Part shown: positions 12,123-37,264 of the stretch, piece after piece
Numbering within the stretch: position 1 is the first letter of the stretch
Layout of the letters: the number at the start of each line of letters is the position of its first letter
NCBI GenBank assembly: GCA_964566135.1
Contig: CAZMHM010000001.1
Location: 5,829 to 69,828 of the forward strand
Origin: an uncultured Candidatus Saccharibacteria bacterium
GTDB lineage: Bacteria; Patescibacteriota; Saccharimonadia; Saccharimonadales; CAIOMD01
Direction of reading: 5' to 3'
DNA: 64,000 nt
Notes under the pieces: generated by a model
Seen by the model: the letters and a program-made list of their open reading frames with translations, nothing else
The model's database searches: none
What the model was told of the DNA's origin: nothing
Translations under genes and position numbers: made by a program

Positions 12123-13709
12123 ATGGCAACAAAGTACATATTTGTTACTGGTGGGGTATTAAGTGGAGTTGGTAAGGGTATTACGGCGGCTAGCATTGGT
12201 GCACTTTTAAAAGCACGCGGGTACACTGTCAATATCCAAAAGTGCGATCCGTATTTTAACGTTGATGCGGGCACGCTAAATCCGGCCGAACATGGCGAAG
12301 TATTTGTCACGAAAGATGGTGCTGAAACCGACCTAGATTTAGGCCATTACGAGAGATACCTAGATATCGAACTTACCCAAGCAAGCTCGACCATGAGTGG
12401 TCGCATTTTCCGGCAAGTTATAGAAGATGAACGCGAAGGTAAATACCTCGGCAAAACCGTTCAAATTATTCCGCACGTCACCAACGCTATGCAGGCCGCA
12501 ATATTAGCTGCCGCCGAAGGTTTTGATGTCCATATCGTAGAGGTGGGTGGTACGGTTGGAGATTACGAAAGTACCGCGTTTGTAGAGGCAATTAGGCAAC
12601 TGAAACATAAGGTAGGCGCAGACAATACACTATTTGTGCATGTAGTGTATTTACCGTTCCTAGAAGCCAGCCAAGAGGTTAAATCGAAGCCTGCCCAAAA
12701 TGCTGTGCGGGATTTGCGTGAGGCGGGTATTCAACCAGATATATTAGTGGCTCGTACAGATCACAAAGTACCCGAAAATATCATTTCAAAACTGAGCTTA
12801 TTTACTGATGTCGAGCCAGAGGCAGTCGTACCAATGCCAACTGTCGAAACAGTGTACGCGGTGCCACTTATCCTCGAAAAACTAGGGATTGGCGATCTAA
12901 CGACAAAAAAGCTTGGCCTACCGAGCAAAAAGGCGAATTTAAAGGATTGGCAAAAGCTAGTTGGTTCCGTGCTAGACGATACCGCGAAGCCAGTTAAACT
13001 GGCAATTGTAGCTAAGTATCTCGACAACAAAGACACCTATGCCAGTGTTATAGAGGCACTAAAAGCCGCATGTTGGGCCGAAGGACGTACGCTTGATTTA
13101 GATTGGATAGATGCCGAAAAACTCTCTGATAATAATGCGGCAAAAATGCTCAAGCCATATGCAGGCATCGTTGTGCCGGGCGGTTTTGGTGTGCGTGGCG
13201 TAGAGGGCAAAATCGCGGCTGCTACCTATGCGCTGCAACATGATGTGCCGTATCTAGGACTATGCCTAGGGATGCAAGTAGCCTGCATAGCCGCAGTGCG
13301 CCTAGGCGGCAAAAAAGATGCCCAAAGCACCGAATTTGACCCTGATACGCCACATCCGGTTATTGACCTTATGGAATCACAAAAAGCGGTTACTAATCTT
13401 GGGGGTACGATGCGGTTGGGTGATTATGATTGTGAGCTTACCAAAGGCAGCAAGGCTGCCAAGCTGTATGGCCAAACGACAATTGTCGAGCGCCATCGTC
13501 ACCGCTTTGAATTTAATGCTGCGTACGAGGCAGATTTGCTACTGCAAGATATTGCTGTTGTAGGTAAAAACCCTCAGACAGGGCTTGCTGAAGTTGTTGA
13601 ATCTACCAAAAATAAGTACTTTGTGGCCAGTCAGTACCATCCTGAATTTACTAGTAGGCCAATGCGCCCGAACCCGCTATTTGTTGGGCTAATTAAAACG
13701 GCTAAATAA
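12123..13709 (+). CDS. pyrG: CTP synthase
   Basis: The N-terminus KYIFVTGGVLSGVGKGI, the glutamine amidotransferase motif GLCLGMQ and the C-terminal QYHPEF are all present over the full length. Confidence 0.95.
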   Translation: MATKYIFVTGGVLSGVGKGITAASIGALLKARGYTVNIQKCDPYFNVDAGTLNPAEHGEVFVTKDGAETDLDLGHYERYLDIELTQASSTMSGRIFRQVIEDEREGKYLGKTVQIIPHVTNAMQAAILAAAEGFDVHIVEVGGTVGDYESTAFVEAIRQLKHKVGADNTLFVHVVYLPFLEASQEVKSKPAQNAVRDLREAGIQPDILVARTDHKVPENIISKLSLFTDVEPEAVVPMPTVETVYAVPLILEKLGIGDLTTKKLGLPSKKANLKDWQKLVGSVLDDTAKPVKLAIVAKYLDNKDTYASVIEALKAACWAEGRTLDLDWIDAEKLSDNNAAKMLKPYAGIVVPGGFGVRGVEGKIAAATYALQHDVPYLGLCLGMQVACIAAVRLGGKKDAQSTEFDPDTPHPVIDLMESQKAVTNLGGTMRLGDYDCELTKGSKAAKLYGQTTIVERHRHRFEFNAAYEADLLLQDIAVVGKNPQTGLAEVVESTKNKYFVASQYHPEFTSRPMRPNPLFVGLIKTAK

Positions 13710-13787
13710 CGGCTATTGCGTATAGTGGTGCAGAATGGTTCAATATAACCATAAGTAGTAATATTGACAATATACTTGGGTAGGTAT

Positions 13788-16139
13788 ATGGCAAAAAGCG
13801 AAAAGGGGAGACATATTGTGGAACCACAAATTCAAGAACCGAACCAGCAAGCGGTTCCGGTTGTGCGCGAACTAGATTCTCAACAAGTGTTGCAACAGAC
13901 AGCAGTCGAGCAAAAACAGACTTTATGGGGGAAGCTTACCAATCATAGACATTTTTCATTAGTAGTATTAGCCTTTGGGTTCGCGCTCATTGGTGGCATT
14001 TTTGTATTTGGCAGCAAGGCAAGTTCGATTAATGGTCTAACTGCAACATACTTCAAAAATACTACCCTTAGCGGCACAGGTACTACACAAATCGACCCAA
14101 CAATTAATTTTAACTGGGCAGCCAAGGCGCCCCTTGCGGGCTTCCCCGTAGATGGCTTCAGCGTGCGCTGGACAGGGCAAGTTAAGACGGCAACAGCCGG
14201 CCAATATAAGTTCATGACTAGTTCTGATGACGGTATCCGCCTATGGGTTAATAATCAATTACTCGTTGACAACTGGACGCAACACGCCCCAACCACAAAT
14301 GTTGGCAGTATAGCGTTACCAGCAAATTCATATTTCGATATTAAGGTTGAGTATTTCGAAAATACGGGGGGTGCCGTTGCTAAGTTGAGCTGGACGCGCC
14401 CTGATGGTGTGACAGAAGTGATACCAGTGACGTCTTTGTACAACGCTGCTCAGCAGCCAAGTGGCCCGCAGAGTGTTACGGCAACTCCGGGCGATAAAAC
14501 TGCGACCATGAACTGGCAGCCATCCGCAAATCAGGGTAGCAGTGCAATTACAGGCTATCGCGTAACGCGCGTTACCGGTGATAGCGCTGCCCCACAGCCA
14601 TGGACAACCGTTGTGCCCGCAACGACACGTTCGCAGCAATTTACCTACCTGCAAAACGGTGTTACCTATACGTTTAGTGTTGCCGCAATTAATAGCGCGG
14701 GCGAAGGCCCTGCGACAACCGTAACGGCGACTCCGGTAGCTGGTGCGGTAGCAGCCCCAGCAACCGGCACGAGTATTGTGTCGGTTTCATCGCCATTTAC
14801 TGTCACAAACAATCCCTACAATCAGGATACTGAATACCGCGTAACATCATCACTCAGACAAGCGAATGCGGCTAATCCACTGCCGTTTGACATGCCTGCA
14901 CGTGCAACCTTGGCAGCCTCTGCTAAAAAAGCAGTAGCCCACTACTTCCCGCAGTTCCCAATAAGTGTTGATAACGCCGATCCATCAACCGATTACTATG
15001 CACGCAACTGGCTTGCCGCTGGTGGCGAGGGCGGAAAGCATGTGGCATACGGTGGTTACCTACGTGACAGGCCGTTAGGTCGCGCACCGCTTAGCGGTGA
15101 CTGGCAGTTAGCTGATGTAACAACCGAGTCTAAATGGGCACGTGATGCTGGCCTTGACGCATTCTTGGTTGATACGTTAGGCTGGAGCACCACAAGTGCT
15201 AATTATCAGCGTGGACGCAAGATATTTGATGGCGCGAAAAACCTCGGCGATAGCACATTTAAGGTTGCTTACATGGTGGATACAGACATAGTATCGGGCA
15301 CCGATTATGCAACCGCTGCCGCTCGTATCGCAGATGCCTATAACTCCGGTTCGTATATGACGGTTAACGGTAAGCTCGTCGTATCTGCTTATCGCCCAGA
15401 GGGAAATTCAGCGCCAAGCTTCTGGCAAAATATTGATACTACGCTCAAAAATACCTACAAGCTACCCGGCATGGTGTTTGTGCCTTGCTATTCAAGTAAC
15501 TGGAACGCGCATACTACCTTTGATGCGATTACCTATGCAATGGGTGTTTGGACTATCGGTAATACTCCCGGCGTTAACTCTGCAACCTGGAACAACACTG
15601 CAACATCGGCCGGAAAGTTGTTTATGCAGCCAATTGCCTTTGGTGATAGTCGGCCCCGTAGTGGTGTGTTTGACGAGCAACAGGGCTTACTAACACTTCG
15701 CGACCAGTGGCTAACTGCCATCAATAACGATGTCGATTGGGTGCAGTACCGAACCTGGAGTGACTTTAGCGAAGGTGCTCAAATGATTCCTTCTCGCAAC
15801 CACGGCTACTCGTATCTCGATGTGAGTGCGTACTACTTGGCACGCTGGAAAACTGGCACGTACCCAACCATCAAGCGCGATGCATTATATCTTAGCCATC
15901 GTATATCCAACTGGGATAATCACAACACGCAAGTTTCGCAAACCACATGGCAAAATCCTCGTAGCGCAAGCACACACCCTGGCCAAAATATTGTCGATGT
16001 TATGTCGTTCTTAACAGCCCCAGGCAAAGTAACAGTAAAGGTTGGCGTCAACACGTATACCTACGATGCTCCGCAGGGTGTATTTAACAAGCAGTTCCCG
16101 CTTGCTAACGGCCAAGTTTCAGCCAGCTTAAGTAGATAA
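13788..16139 (+). CDS. Secreted PA14 + fibronectin-III + GH71-like (endo-alpha-1,3-glucanase family) glycosyl hydrolase
   Basis: TM anchor, then a PA14-like segment (GLTATYFKNTTLSG...FSVRWTGQV...DDGIRLWVNNQLLVDNW), an FN3 segment (PQSVTATPGDKTATMNWQPS) and a C-terminal domain (VAHYFPQFPIS...DAFLVDTLGW) resembling GH71. The start is taken at the ATG at 13788. Confidence 0.55.
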   Translation: MAKSEKGRHIVEPQIQEPNQQAVPVVRELDSQQVLQQTAVEQKQTLWGKLTNHRHFSLVVLAFGFALIGGIFVFGSKASSINGLTATYFKNTTLSGTGTTQIDPTINFNWAAKAPLAGFPVDGFSVRWTGQVKTATAGQYKFMTSSDDGIRLWVNNQLLVDNWTQHAPTTNVGSIALPANSYFDIKVEYFENTGGAVAKLSWTRPDGVTEVIPVTSLYNAAQQPSGPQSVTATPGDKTATMNWQPSANQGSSAITGYRVTRVTGDSAAPQPWTTVVPATTRSQQFTYLQNGVTYTFSVAAINSAGEGPATTVTATPVAGAVAAPATGTSIVSVSSPFTVTNNPYNQDTEYRVTSSLRQANAANPLPFDMPARATLAASAKKAVAHYFPQFPISVDNADPSTDYYARNWLAAGGEGGKHVAYGGYLRDRPLGRAPLSGDWQLADVTTESKWARDAGLDAFLVDTLGWSTTSANYQRGRKIFDGAKNLGDSTFKVAYMVDTDIVSGTDYATAAARIADAYNSGSYMTVNGKLVVSAYRPEGNSAPSFWQNIDTTLKNTYKLPGMVFVPCYSSNWNAHTTFDAITYAMGVWTIGNTPGVNSATWNNTATSAGKLFMQPIAFGDSRPRSGVFDEQQGLLTLRDQWLTAINNDVDWVQYRTWSDFSEGAQMIPSRNHGYSYLDVSAYYLARWKTGTYPTIKRDALYLSHRISNWDNHNTQVSQTTWQNPRSASTHPGQNIVDVMSFLTAPGKVTVKVGVNTYTYDAPQGVFNKQFPLANGQVSASLSR

Positions 16140-16141
16140 AT

Positions 16142-16570
16142 ATGCGCCCAGAGTCTATAACAGATAAACTAGCTGTTTATGCAGCGCTTGGATTAACGCT
16201 GTTTATGATAGTGTTCCAGTTTCTATTGGCTATTGGCTTACCGCTGGGTCATGCCGCATGGGGTGGTAAATATGAAGTTTTACCGACTAATTTTAGGGTA
16301 GGTAGCGCGGTTAACGTCATTATATATTTTTGGATTGGTGCTTGTGTGCTCAGGGCTTCTGGGCTTGCGCTTAAATCTATTAACTTTAAAATTGCGCGTG
16401 TTACGTTGTATATTTTTGGTTCGTTTTTAGTGCTAGGAGTACTTATGAACTTGGCGTCGCCGAGTCACTGGGAACGCTATCTAATGGCGCCAACAGCCCT
16501 AGCGTTTTGCTTAAGCACCCTGCATATTGCGTACCATTCCGGCAAGCTTACTAAGGCCAAAAAAGCATAA
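16142..16570 (+). CDS. Hypothetical 4-TM membrane protein
   Basis: 142 aa and strongly hydrophobic. It starts 2 nt after the hydrolase stop. Confidence 0.5.
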   Translation: MRPESITDKLAVYAALGLTLFMIVFQFLLAIGLPLGHAAWGGKYEVLPTNFRVGSAVNVIIYFWIGACVLRASGLALKSINFKIARVTLYIFGSFLVLGVLMNLASPSHWERYLMAPTALAFCLSTLHIAYHSGKLTKAKKA

Positions 16571-16599
16571 CCATATCTGTTAATTCTTATTAATATTTC

Positions 16600-16628
16600 T
16601 TGCACATCATAGGCGATATAGCTATTAT
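16600..16628 (+). promoter_or_regulatory. Sigma70-like promoter, TTGCAC-17 nt-TATTAT, for the GC-rich RNA/RT unit
   Basis: TTGCAC at 16600-16605 and TATTAT at 16623-16628 with a 17-nt spacer. The predicted start near 16635 lies 3 nt before the 5' arm of the long-range helix. Confidence 0.5.
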
Positions 16629-16634
16629 TGACTC

Positions 16635-17125
16635 AGCCACGGTACACCGTGGGCCTTGGGGCTAGATTTTGTACGGCGCGGGCAACCGTGCTCGAGTTGC
16701 TAGTTACGACTAGTACTCAAAAATGTCGTCGCTATGGTGGCTCGGCTTGGTCGTTTGCACTCGCTTGCGAGGGCTACGTCCTGCCTCTGCGGGTGGTCCT
16801 GTTTTCTGGGGCGCTCGCTCTTCACCTCTCTGTGGCTCGCACCGTCATCGTCGCGCGCAAGCGCGGTGGTGGGCGAGCTCGGAGCCGTCTTGATGCGCGC
16901 GTACGTCTGAGTGACCAGGCGCACGTGTCTCGATGGCGTGTGGACGCGTTCTGTTGCGCACACACGGCGACGGCACGTCGGCACTTGCGACCGCGACTCT
17001 CATGCTGAGTCTGTGGCTCGCTCCGACGACGATGGTGGTTACCAAACGGTGTGGCAAAGTATGACCCAAGGCCCATCGGTAACCGTCGTGTTTACGAGTG
17101 GGGTAGGGCGCTTCTGCGCCCGCCC
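16635..17125 (+). ncRNA. GC-rich structured non-coding RNA upstream of the RT (candidate retron msr-msd-like RNA)
   Basis: The ends pair (16638-16660 with 17065-17090, about 20 bp) and G16661 is left unpaired. A nested helix joins 16840-16853 to 17024-17037, and several small hairpins include a GCAA tetraloop at 16852-16865. Every frame gives only junk ORFs, and the composition jump is abrupt. Confidence 0.6.
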
Positions 17126-17141
17126 TGCTCACTCAACCTGT

Positions 17142-18119
17142 ATGACTAATCCTGATAGATTTTATGACCGGTATCGGCAACGCAACGCGAGCCTATTTTT
17201 AGAAGCAGCAAGTACGCTTGGCGAGTTTGCTGATGGCGAACAACCGGTCTTTACCCCGTATATCCCCAAAAGGCAGACACCAGAAAAAACAATTTGGATG
17301 CCAAACCAAGCCATGATTGAAGTGCATGGGCGCCTTAAGAGCGCGCTCGAAATAGAGCGCCCGCTATTTTTAGGCCCATCATATGGTGGTATTACTGGTG
17401 GCTCGCCTGCTCGTAACATTGCACCTCATACGCCAAACAGATATTTTTATCAGCTTGATTTTGCCAATGCGTACAGCCAAGTAGACGCTGCAAAACTCGC
17501 GCGGCTCATTATTGACGGCCGTGGCACGTATAAAGAAATTGAGGCTGTGCAGGCGGTGCTCGAAACCTATTGTCTTACGCCAACAGGTACCGGTTTAGCA
17601 CGTGGCGGGCCATTATCACCATACTTGTTTAATTTGTACTGCGAAGAGCTCGATTGGGAGCTACAAGGCTATACCGATAGGCGCGGCATCACGTACACCC
17701 GGTATCTCGATGATTTAACGTTCTCGCGGCCAGATAATGGATTCCCCATCCGCGATACTATTACCGCCCCCGAGCGGAGTGATATTCGCGCAATTATCGA
17801 TAACAACGGGCTTACCCTAAACCCTGCAAAAACTCGGGTTAGCGATGTGCATGATGCACCAGTAATAATTACCGGTCTGCAGCTTGATAAAAACGGCCAA
17901 TGGCACATTAAAGATAAAGCCGCTCGCGAAGCCCGAGCTAAACTGCTAGCTCAGCACGGCATGTTTGCTGGCACCTTACTACAAAAACAGGTGCGCGATT
18001 TAGCAGCCGGCTATAAAGGCATGCTAGATGCTGCCGAACATGGCAAAAAGCGCTCAAAAAGTGAGCGCCAATTAGGCGAGCTTGCCGAAAGATTATTAGT
18101 AGAAATTCCAGCACTCTAA
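17142..18119 (+). CDS. Reverse transcriptase, retron-type (325 aa)
   Basis: RT motifs seen: YIPKRQTPEKTIWMP, YFYQLDFANAYSQV, GGPLSPYLFNLYCEELD, YTRYLDDLTFS, LTLNPAKTRV and VIITGLQL (a VTG-like motif). The ATG at 17142 is the first start after the structured RNA; the ORF-track start at 16911 lies inside the ncRNA. Confidence 0.85.
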   Translation: MTNPDRFYDRYRQRNASLFLEAASTLGEFADGEQPVFTPYIPKRQTPEKTIWMPNQAMIEVHGRLKSALEIERPLFLGPSYGGITGGSPARNIAPHTPNRYFYQLDFANAYSQVDAAKLARLIIDGRGTYKEIEAVQAVLETYCLTPTGTGLARGGPLSPYLFNLYCEELDWELQGYTDRRGITYTRYLDDLTFSRPDNGFPIRDTITAPERSDIRAIIDNNGLTLNPAKTRVSDVHDAPVIITGLQLDKNGQWHIKDKAAREARAKLLAQHGMFAGTLLQKQVRDLAAGYKGMLDAAEHGKKRSKSERQLGELAERLLVEIPAL

Positions 18120-18199
18120 CTGCATTGCTTTTCGCTGTTTTCAGCTCATCAGCATGAACATACATTCATGTAAGCAATTTCGGCAAGATAGCTGTGACG

Positions 18200-18227
18200 G
18201 GCGGGGGCAAGCGAACTTGCCCCCGCC
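18200..18227 (-). terminator. GC-rich hairpin without a U-tract, downstream of the 141-aa gene
   Basis: GGCGGGGGCAAG-cgaa-CTTGCCCCCGCC, a perfect 12-bp stem lying 6 nt after the minus-strand stop. No T- or A-run on either side. Confidence 0.5.
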
Positions 18228-18233
18228 GAAGCG

Positions 18234-18659
18234 TCAGATGCTGACGGTCGAGTCAGCCGAGTAGAACGGCTGAAAGTTGCCATAGCGCGTTCTCACCATG
18301 CGGTCGGTGCCAGCGAAGTGCATCCTGAGGATGAGCTCCTTCGAGTTACTGAACTTCCTCAGCCCCTTGGCGTCATAGACGGTTCCGTCGATGTAGTGCT
18401 TGCCGGGGATGGGGGTTCTGGTACCGATGACGAAATCGCGGGAGTGCGGGCCTCGCGGTTCGAGCTGGATGACTCGTTCTTCCACGGTGGCCTGCTCGAA
18501 CCCGAAGCATTCCGCGTTGTCAGGCCGAAGCCCAACCGCGAGCTGTGCATCGAGTCCGTTGACGGTGATGGGCGCTCCTGGAGTCTCACTACCAACGACC
18601 CAAAACCGCACCACGTAGCTGTACGAAGTCTGGGCGTCGATGACCTTGACGGTGTTCAT
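18234..18659 (-). CDS. Hypothetical 141-aa protein in a GC-rich island (orphan)
   Basis: ATG at 18659 with an AAAGG ribosome-binding site and a TATAAT box upstream (plus coordinates ~18720). The product MNTVKVIDAQTSYSYVVRFWVV... has protein-like composition. Four overlapping ORFs in other frames reflect the high GC content. Confidence 0.6.
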   Translation of the reverse strand: MNTVKVIDAQTSYSYVVRFWVVGSETPGAPITVNGLDAQLAVGLRPDNAECFGFEQATVEERVIQLEPRGPHSRDFVIGTRTPIPGKHYIDGTVYDAKGLRKFSNSKELILRMHFAGTDRMVRTRYGNFQPFYSADSTVSI

Positions 18660-18832
18660 GCGATCACGACCTTTGCTATCTTGTCGAAGGTACCTGGGGC
18701 TATGTAGCCTCAAGCTAAGTATATTATAGCATAAGAACAATGAAAAAGCAATATTTGGTATCTGTTACGCACTAGTTCTACGGCATAATATTGCCAAAAT
18801 AGCAATTATTCTAAAATAACACCTAAAAAGTG

Positions 18833-36660: not shown

Positions 36661-36683
36661 TATTATTTATATTCCGCACATGC

Positions 36684-36711
36684 TTGCATTATTTCTTGTA
36701 CAAGATAGAAT
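36684..36711 (+). promoter_or_regulatory. Sigma70-like promoter, TTGCAT-16 nt-TAGAAT
   Basis: TTGCAT at 36684-36689 and TAGAAT at 36706-36711, directly upstream of the GC-rich unit. Confidence 0.4.
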
Positions 36712-36717
36712 TGACTC

Positions 36718-37214
36718 TATCTCGGGTGAACTCATCGAACGTAGATGGGCATCTAGCGAAGCTGGCATGTACTCTGGCTTAGCAGCAACCAAACAGTAGT
36801 CCGCGAGGTTGCGAGACAATGATAAATCTCTGTGTGGCATTTGCCGGAAAGTCCGATTGAACAGACCGGAACTCCGCTTATAAGCGCACAGACGGGTGCT
36901 CCCCCGGTCGGAAAGTACTATCGCTAGAGGTACCGACATAGGAGCAGCCATCGATGCAGCCGCATCGGCCTGAGGCCTCATTCCCCCGGAGGTCGTAAGG
37001 CACCAGATGGCGCACGGTGTGTTTTGCAAACTGCTGGGCATAACCCCCCACGGTCCGCCCGCAGCGAAAACACACTACCAGGCACTCGCGTGTCGTACGT
37101 CCGGCTTGGAAACAGCCCGGCGGATGTCTGTGAGAATTAGCAGACCGACCTTGTGCCAGATACGCCGGTGGGCAGACGGATTCGCTCCGTCTGCCCACCG
37201 GTAGTCCCACCTTT
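36718..37214 (+). ncRNA. Large GC-rich structured RNA candidate, family unresolved (divergent RNase P RNA is one possibility)
   Basis: No credible ORF. Dense hairpins include GCAACC/GGTTGC (36785-36812), CGATGC/GCATCG (~36952-36967), GGCC/GGCC, a long hairpin GTGTGTTTT...AAAACACAC (37016-37075) and a 13-bp stem at 37165-37200 followed by CCCACC and a T-run. GGAAAGTCCG (36845-36854) followed 5 nt later by ACAGA matches the RNase P CR-I string, and CGGCTT at 37102-37107 could form a P4-like helix. Other conserved RNase P blocks were not recognised. Confidence 0.5.
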
Positions 37215-37264
37215 TTGACACTTATGCTTGCAAAATCACCCTGTTATTTGGTAGGGTAATACCC

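Follow-up and report, generated by a model that had tools for sequence, protein, structure and literature searches.

Positions 16600-18230 of a 64,000-nt stretch of DNA from an uncultured Candidatus Saccharibacteria bacterium (assembly GCA_964566135.1, contig CAZMHM010000001.1, positions 5,829 to 69,828; this whole stretch is called the window below) hold a promoter-like site, a GC-rich region and an open reading frame (ORF) for a reverse transcriptase (RT), and were analysed as a candidate retron-like retroelement. An initial annotation, made from the letters of the window, had read them as a promoter, a long RNA with paired ends and a retron-type RT in a host from the candidate phyla radiation (CPR). 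The features of the locus are collected in Table 1. Homologous loci, which came mostly from short metagenomic contigs, are designated by L numbers; the inverted repeats that close retron RNAs are called a1 (5' arm) and a2 (3' arm), and the two strands of a further helix around the 3' arm, the clamp, are called X and X'.

Table 1. Positions of the RNA elements, genes and hairpins at the locus, in window coordinates.
Feature	Position	Strand	Details
Membrane protein gene	16142-16570	+	142 aa, with 3-4 hydrophobic segments; gene end 30 nt upstream of the RNA promoter
Promoter-like site	16600-16628	+	-35 TTGCAC 16600-16605, 17-nt spacer, -10 TATTAT 16623-16628; match to consensus only
5' hairpin	16637-16652	+	CCACGG-UACA-CCGUGG; overlaps the first 4 nt of the 5' arm; -8.8 kcal/mol alone
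5' arm (a1-like)	16649-16660	+	GUGGGCCUUGGG; purine-rich; pairs with 17065-17076
Conserved 5' (msr-like) domain	16661-16735	+	internal-loop GCUAG including G16661; stem-loops 16675-16692 (GCAA) and 16694-16718 (UACG); CUCAAAAAUGUCGUC
Variable centre (msd-like candidate template)	16736-17031	+	GC-rich (62-66%), A-poor, multi-hairpin; unalignable to L023; no conserved ORF or peptide
Clamp X, 5' strand	17032-17043	+	core GGUUACC 17037-43; pairs with 17078-17089
Linker L2 between X and 3' arm	17044-17064	+	21 nt; would be the first template stretch in the retron model
3' arm (a2-like)	17065-17076	+	CCCAAGGCCCAU; partner of 16649-16660
Clamp X', 3' strand	17078-17089	+	core GGUAACC 17078-84; 1 nt past the 3' arm
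GC-rich trailing hairpin	17096-17130	+	between RNA core and RT start; in the predicted fold; no U tail here
Retron-type RT ORF	17142-18119	+	325 aa, RT domain only; NIAPH (region X), YLDD, ITG (region Y)
GC hairpin	18200-18227	.	perfect 12 bp, GGCGGGGGCAAG-CGAA-CUUGCCCCCGCC; between convergent RT and 142-aa genes
GC-rich orphan gene	18234-18662	-	142 aa; convergent with RT

The reverse transcriptase and its family

The RT was compared with the PADLOC and NCBIfam profile collections, and retron models scored best. RVT_1 was the sole Pfam domain (6.6e-14). The best PADLOC match was RT_II-A (1.7e-28, 97.7 bits), followed by retron models of types XI, III-A and VI, with type XI RT models as second and third matches at about 88-89 bits; models of defence-associated RTs (DRT) were absent from the top 25 PADLOC matches. 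The NCBIfam order was retron_St85_RT (88.7 bits), Ec67, TIR retron, group II (41.8 bits), Drt3a (37.5 bits) and Drt2 (28.1 bits). A family profile was built from 33 RT family members and searched against the PDB, where it matched the RT of retron Ec86 at 1e-39 and 140 bits (positions 17-289 of 302 covered); the 15 top matches were retron RTs throughout, at 64-140 bits, and non-retron RTs scored lower (group II 57 bits, Drt2 52, AbiK 40, Drt3a 37). Six residues were invariant in the 33 sequences, N92, H96, Y188, D190, D191 and G245, the first two belonging to region X (NxxxH; NIAPH in the window, with the A position varying) and the last to region Y, where ITG of the window aligns with VTG of Ec86 and I243 is at least 90% conserved. 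The catalytic box YxDD reads YLDD, a variant of the usual YADD, in more than 90% of the family, and RYLDDLTFS is essentially invariant, so that the YLDD box, first noted as unusual, is the family norm. The other RT motifs that had been quoted are likewise all present in the translation, and ATG 17142 lies 51 nt past 17090, as counted before. By profile scores and motifs the enzyme is classed as a retron-clade RT, which bears out the original call. A group II intron was rejected (group_II_RT_mat 41.8 bits against a cut-off of 300; no intron RNA in Rfam, even at E ≤ 10), and so was a diversity-generating retroelement (DGR), as no part of 16600-17141 recurs elsewhere in the 64-kb window and the RT is nearest to retron models.

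Relatives of the RT were collected by a word-indexed search, which gave 48, and by an exhaustive profile search, which gave 2139 representatives at E ≤ 1e-30, probably including other retron RTs; among 50%-identity clusters of the representative library, the best 150 scored above 250 bits without exception, and nearly all were 255-430 aa long (RT only). Twenty loci lay in species-representative genomes: 19 were from metagenome-assembled genomes labelled as Patescibacteria group, CPR lineages or plain "bacterium" (among them Saccharibacteria, Parcubacteria, Campbell-, Zambryski-, Andersen-, Kerfeld- and Harrisonbacteria), and one was from a metagenome-assembled genome labelled Gammaproteobacteria. 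Ribosomal protein L3 of the window was 85% identical to proteins named Candidatus Saccharibacteria, which places the host in that group and confirms the suspected CPR host. Going by these labels, the RT family is almost entirely patescibacterial, broad across CPR lineages and patchily distributed. A 2021 review attributed about 80% of CPR RTs to DGRs (PMC8632793), a 2026 metagenome retron survey does not mention Patescibacteria, Saccharibacteria or CPR (bioRxiv 10.64898/2026.05.14.725207), and no retron family described from any of these three was found in the literature searched. What appears to be new here is a CPR-wide retron-like family without a toxin gene, previously undescribed; its kind, the retron, is known.

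The upstream RNA and its pairings

Both promoter hexamers of the initial annotation were found in place, and a consensus promoter scan read the same site as TGCACA-16-TATTAT with 9/12 matches. In L023, the locus of a homolog with 59% identity, sequence conservation with the window starts at 16633-16634, and TATCAT stands at the place of the -10 hexamer; transcription is predicted to start near 16635. The reported jump in G+C was reproduced (16/60 at 16561-16620, 42/60 at 16861-16920), a 200-nt profile, with a mean of 45% over the window, reached 62-66% at 16700-17000, and each close homolog has a GC-rich block upstream of its RT. The region 16635-17141 (507 nt) folds at -258 kcal/mol, compared with -215 +/- 6 for dinucleotide shuffles (z = -7.1, 0/100 as good). 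It belongs to no Rfam family: a search of the whole window at the gathering threshold returned only 4 tRNAs, and a search of 16550-17200 at E ≤ 10 returned noise only (11-14 bits).

That this region is a decayed coding gene or a chance GC-rich spacer is hardly credible. A 126-codon ORF runs from 16628 to 17008, and gene callers placed ORFs likewise in L029 and L030; however, the few stops in the window RNA are explained by its A-poor composition (14% A), and neither frames nor peptides are conserved among the homologs. A tblastx comparison of 17 homolog upstream regions found no common peptide beyond the nucleotide-conserved ends, and six-frame stop counts in 17 homolog RNA regions gave no consistently open frame or strand (stops in all six frames of L023 and L034, at least one stop per frame in the window). 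The fold stability given above and the conservation of structure across the family also speak against a decayed gene. On the absence of a conserved frame and a conserved peptide, a decayed gene and an endless ORF were both rejected, and the earlier statement that 16635-17125 yields no gene stood. The stretch from 16635 to about 17130 is, by these comparisons, a non-coding and strongly structured RNA.

Conservation is concentrated at the two ends of the RNA, with the 5' hairpin, a1 and the two stem-loops at one and the clamp, a2 and the trailing hairpin at the other. Between the window and L023, 16634-16730 is 76% identical, the last ~95 nt are also conserved, and the centre is unalignable, as one would expect if a free template were framed by a scaffold that a protein recognises. 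Both stem-loops of the 5' domain are kept in L023 with few compensatory changes; an alifold consensus of this domain (window, L021, L023 and L030, the last misaligned) gave weak support to the stem-loops. For 17 of 19 homolog RNAs the interior, folded without its arms, surpassed shuffles in stability (mean z -3.8). In the predicted folds, computational like all the structural evidence given here, the 5' domain forms two short hairpins, and the remainder is multi-branched with 4-10 hairpins in all members folded. The small hairpins described initially are present, at 16675-16692 (GCAA), 16699-16714 (UACG), 16760-16771 (CUUG) and 16852-16863. Against L021, a 95% relative, the centre of the window RNA carries 19 substitutions or indels, several of which break pairs of the minimum free energy (MFE) fold. 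A polypyrimidine tract (at least 15/16 C/U) was seen mid-RNA in 10 of 27 family RNAs (e.g. L051, L005, L046, L026 and L010) and is weak in the window (16815-16830); as a universal feature it was rejected on this count.

The pairing of the RNA ends was examined in the 49 loci with enough upstream sequence by taking the top-scoring perfect helix, which counted if it had 12 bp or more and its 3' arm lay 20-130 nt ahead of the RT start. Such a helix was found in 24/49 loci, compared with 3/147 dinucleotide shuffles and 1/39 natural control regions; about half of the family loci have no perfect 12-bp helix, possibly through bulges. The helix is present in every close homolog with different arm sequences: GUGGGCCUUGGG / CCCAAGGCCCAU in the window, GGAGGUCUCGGGG / CCCCGAGACCUCU in L026, GGGGCGAGGGGAAA / UUUCCCCUCGCCCC in L028, GGGCGAAGGAGUGG / CCACUUCUUCGCCC in L033 and GGGUCGGGGGAGA / UCUCCCCCGACCC in L034. 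This recurrence upstream of homologous RTs upholds the long-range end pairing that had been claimed. In most family loci the 5' arm is purine-rich with G runs. The helix core of the window has -23.9 kcal/mol and an ensemble probability of about 1. End-helix spans range from 158 to 513 nt across the family, with 428 nt in the window and 400, 425 and 460 nt in L023, L030 and L026 of its clade; the RNA, described at first as unusual at ~450 nt, is long and typical of its clade, and comparable lengths are also found elsewhere (L054 426, L060 447, L055 513 nt).

Between the RNA core and the RT, a GC-rich hairpin was found within 130 nt after a2 in 22/27 loci, with a T-rich terminator-like tail in 8 of these. 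In L026 (1455-1540) and L027 (315-397), two homologs with 43% identity, a ~100-nt AT-rich spacer separates RNA from RT; it holds an inverted repeat, ACCGTTAGAACT / AGTTCTAACGG, whose 3' arm adjoins the RT start codon and which may control translation. The hairpin directly before the RT start, often terminator-like, and the inverted repeat over the RT start region of L026 and L027 fit a structured RNA that is a mere regulatory leader or independent small RNA, never reverse transcribed, with the RT using other templates. A leader would not, however, need a variable yet highly structured RNA of 160-510 nt with a 12-14-bp end helix, and the sequences at the RNA ends covary with RT lineage (the window, L023 and L030 share CUCGAGU; L054, L055 and L060 share GAUUCCGG), which fits specific recognition; we consider the leader reading decidedly unlikely.

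The sequences that flank the 3' arm were found to be complementary to each other. Helix and linker lengths varied too much for an automatic alignment to be reliable, and in place of R-scape or covariance models the pairings were assessed by position-anchored permutation and shuffling, on 27 loci chosen for a clear a1/a2 helix. In these curated loci X lies mostly 13-29 nt 5' of a2, and X' lies 0-4 nt 3' of a2. Clamp complementarity was tested by cross-locus permutation and gave z = 10 in the 27 loci, with 0/20000 permutations as high. The strands vary between loci: AGUUACCAAC/GUUGGUAACU in L023, ACCGGA/UCCGGU in L030 and ACGUGG/CCACGU in L026, and elsewhere UUGGGAG/CUCCCAA, GGGGUA/UACCCC, AAAGACCC/GGGUCUUU and GGAAGGCC/GGCCUUCC, with CUCAGCG/CGCUGA in many loci; in the window the core can be extended to 12 bp. 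The segment after a1 was also complementary to the linker before a2 (z = 6.0). This extension of the end stem adds 7 bp in the window (16666-72 / 17054-60), 12 bp in each of L045 and L047 and 14 bp in L051, and gives a 25-30-bp interrupted end stem in some loci. In 70% of the 27 loci, compared with 37% of shuffles, a hairpin scoring at least 5 was present within the 32 nt that precede the 5' arm.

With the strand order a1 < X < a2 < X', clamp and end stem cross. Helix geometry suggests that the clamp is compatible with the a1/a2 core only if the linker is single-stranded, and incompatible with the fully extended stem. Since clamp and full extension exclude each other, the RNA can probably take up either of two conserved states around the 3' arm, which in this structural model could be, for example, those before and after engagement of the RT. 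A similar competition affects the outer parts of the arms. The arms of ~20 bp first proposed, CACGGTACACCGTGGGCCTTGGG (16638-16660) and CCCAAGGCCCATCGGTAACCGTCGTG (17065-17090), are complementary and paired in the MFE fold, and their core has a probability of about 1, as given above; their outer parts coincide with the conserved 5' hairpin and a clamp strand. The outer pairing (16638-48 / 17077-90) is worth -10.3 kcal/mol, and the competing 5' hairpin and clamp together about -22; it is improbable that the 20-bp extended arm is the biological pairing. The nested helix that had been placed at 16840-16853/17024-17037 was rejected: the complementarity exists (16841-53 / 17027-39, 13 bp with 2 G-U), but it lies outside the MFE fold with an ensemble probability of about 0, the conserved clamp strand X occupies part of its 3' strand, and the stretch corresponding to 17010-17034 is rewritten in L021, where by hand count on the alignment ~10/13 pairs survive with a 2-nt insertion. 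One of two contigs with 95% identity, L022, differs at its 5' end: its positions 1-55 are AT-rich and bear no relation to window 16640-16694, where 5' hairpin, 5' arm and first stem-loop are situated. Either the contig end is chimeric, or the locus is a natural variant without the 5' end of the RNA.

Comparison with known systems and interpretation

In the current understanding, retrons are tripartite phage defences akin to toxin-antitoxin systems, and most come from Proteobacteria. The locus was compared with Retron-Eco1 (Ec86, type II-A, E. coli), the only canonical retron checked, on the real locus sequence (L086). The two RTs are similar over the whole of their length, with N..H in region X, YxDD and xTG, and each has directly upstream an ncRNA that is closed by 12-bp inverted repeats. 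They differ in the RNA span (169 nt in Ec86, 428 nt in the window), in the catalytic box (YADD and YLDD, respectively), in the host (a gammaproteobacterium or prophage for Ec86, Saccharibacteria for the window) and in the effector, which in Ec86 lies immediately upstream and overlaps the ncRNA start and in the window is not linked. By eye, Ec86 also lacks an obvious 5' hairpin before a1, unlike the CPR family. Myxobacterial retrons Mx162 and Sa163 are chromosomal and partly vertically inherited and have a comparatively long msd, with multicopy single-stranded DNAs (msDNAs) of about 160 nt; the candidate template of the window would be ~300-400 nt and multi-branched, and the hosts are unrelated. 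Two protease-less type XI-like lineages described from metagenomes, one named TXI_C2like, the other TXI_noncan_h (bioRxiv 10.64898/2026.05.14.725207), resemble the CPR family in having a divergent retron RT that keeps NAxxH and VTG, a predicted upstream msr/msd-like RNA and no fused effector; they occur in Bacteroidota and Bacillota with recurrent WYL and DnaB_C accessory genes, whereas the CPR family has housekeeping neighbours.

The reading that we favour is a two-component retron-like retroelement, composed of a promoter-driven structured ncRNA of ~450-500 nt and a cognate retron-clade RT, and we regard it as rather likely. In terms of retron membership, the RT behaves as a retron RT in each comparison and the a1/a2 pairing is present; a linked effector is not. 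Several findings weigh against this reading. The window RT scores below all curated NCBIfam retron subfamily cut-offs (88.7 against 235 bits). No linked or fused effector was found, a departure from the tripartite definition. A terminator-like hairpin between RNA and RT in many members means that the two may be separate transcripts. The interior of the RNA is predicted to be multi-branched, unlike the classical one or two msr hairpins and one long msd hairpin. Ec86 has no clamp at a2, where its best score, 4, is that of the null mean. Finally, the branching G stands right after a1 in Ec86 and is not conserved in the CPR family: a G directly 3' of a1 is present in the window (G16661), L023, L034, L004 and L011 and not in most loci. 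Of the unpaired G described initially, its presence in the window and L023 held, and the 27 loci inspected showed no constant position for a branching G. The 5' arm itself ends in G runs, so that a nearby G is always available.

Some of these points could also reflect an RT and RNA that cooperate by a non-retron mechanism. In the effector-less DRT2 a rolling-circle cDNA creates a gene, and in DRT9 a homopolymer is made by protein priming; DRT2 (UG2) shares with the window the two components, an RT and an upstream structured ncRNA, and the lack of an effector gene. In a DRT2/DRT9-like system the paired ends would juxtapose the ends of the template instead of presenting a branching G, which would fit the conserved helix that joins the RNA ends, the lack of conservation of the G after a1 and the unusual conserved clamp with its pseudoknot-like topology around the 3' arm; a stop-free frame spans the inter-arm region in L028, L030, L018, L010 and L014. 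The window RT, however, belongs to another clade (Drt2 28 bits against a cut-off of 390; 52 bits in the PDB search) and is far nearer to retron RTs than to Drt2, Drt3a or AbiK. The template region of the family has no conserved endless ORF, with no frame or strand consistently open, stops in all six frames of L023 and L034 and no peptide similarity between the RNA regions. A DRT-like mechanism is in our estimate unlikely.

In the retron-like reading, the RT would bind the conserved platform formed by the RNA ends and would prime DNA synthesis from the 2'-OH of a G located at, or adjacent to, the 5' arm's inner end, with G16661 as the candidate in the window. It would then copy the strand 5' of the 3' arm, from 17064 downward, into the variable centre, and the clamp/extension alternative may gate or follow priming and copying. 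Synthesis of cDNA (msDNA) by the window RT is part of this proposal; the DNA made by reverse transcription (RT-DNA) may be much longer than known msDNAs. With no effector linked, the output would be the complex of RT-DNA, RNA and RT itself, or action through unlinked host factors, and patchy distribution together with location in a variable island (see below) favours an accessory role, in defence or as a selfish element, over a housekeeping one. A wider reading is put forward tentatively, as possible and short of probable: CPR bacteria may harbour their own ancient lineage of effector-less retrons with a distinctive RNA platform, a long variable template and a toxin-free product. The platform would consist of the 5' hairpin, the purine-rich a1 paired to a2 and the switchable clamp around a2, and an RT-DNA of several hundred nt would serve, for example, as decoy, sensor or intermediate of a minimal mobile retroelement.

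A broad and sizeable CPR RT family without a linked effector raises the question of what role a retron RT and its RNA have alone. The alternative of clamp and extension at the 3' arm is a concrete structural feature that can be tested and that is absent from Ec86. If the long centre is indeed copied, the RT-DNA would be several times longer than characterised msDNAs, and for genome editing with retrons such RTs would be natural long-donor enzymes. In hosts with tiny genomes that live in dependence on other bacteria, retention of the element is informative on its cost and benefit.

Genomic setting and neighbouring features

The absence of a co-oriented effector after the RT, noted in the initial annotation, was confirmed: a Pfam search that covered nine small ORFs along with ten downstream neighbours, and a PADLOC search of the window neighbours, found no effector, only housekeeping genes or no match. 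Housekeeping neighbours were also seen in L004, L005, L009, L015, L028, L033 and L034; genes next to family RTs encode an Exo_endo_phos (xth-like) nuclease, MiaA, UvrB, glutaredoxin and thioredoxin reductase (grx/trxB) and a SpoU methylase. The unit of RT and RNA is usually co-oriented with its neighbours, tightly packed and about 1.3-1.6 kb long. In the window it lies inside a 5.1-kb segment, 13698-18829, between pyrG and rplC, which contains a PA14/fn3 surface protein, the 142-aa membrane protein, the RNA, the RT and the 142-aa orphan; in a relative with 95% identical L3 this segment is replaced by a single Band_7 gene, and by this comparison it is a variable island at a conserved site.

Self-contained units set tightly between co-oriented conserved genes (between ftsA and ftsZ in L033, between rpiB and rpe in L034 and before miaA in L009), the patchy occurrence across CPR lineages and the position of the window unit within a variable island would suit a minimal mobile retroelement that inserts between housekeeping genes, with the RNA as transposition intermediate or template. 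Against this stand a single copy in the 64-kb window, an RT without endonuclease or integrase domain, and an RT gene that lies outside the end-paired RNA, so that the RNA alone could not carry it; neither target-site duplications nor terminal repeats of the unit as a whole were observed, and autonomous mobility is not known for retrons. Mobility of this kind is distinctly unlikely, and the retron-like reading is retained.

The hairpin at 18200-18227 is, from its sequence and position, probably a bidirectional terminator, and the spacer that holds it is conserved in L035 and L036. The 142-aa orphan downstream has only 4 homologs (65-97% identity), one of them in L035, where gene and family RT (41% identity to the RT of the window) again converge. 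It gave no Pfam, PADLOC or NCBIfam match, its AlphaFold model was unusable (pLDDT 39.5), and its membership of the element is uncertain. In the RT-orphan interval of L035 (1349-2525) a 1.06-kb insertion flanked by a 52-nt direct repeat carries two extra ORFs (116 and 91 aa), and a counterpart of the 91-aa ORF, with 79% identity, lies downstream of the RT in both L031 and L032; this subclade of L035, L031 and L032 has variable small GC-rich ORFs convergent with the RT, in a cassette-like arrangement and with no Pfam or PADLOC match. The 142-aa membrane protein upstream is co-oriented with the RNA and occupies the position that the effector has in retron Ec86; it had no Pfam, NCBIfam or PADLOC match, and its sole homolog among the fetched loci (37% over 100 aa) is in L007, ~1.4 kb upstream of the RT. 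The orphan and the membrane protein are weak candidates for a partner.

Elsewhere in the window, at 36670-37215, a second GC-rich (59-62%) stretch of ~540 nt without a credible ORF was seen between two + strand genes. No Rfam match at E ≤ 1 and no tmRNA were found in it. The stretch ends in a hairpin and a T run (37168-37215), GGAAAGTCCG at 36846-36855 resembles the conserved CR-I motif of RNase P RNA, and the stretch is probably a divergent rnpB.

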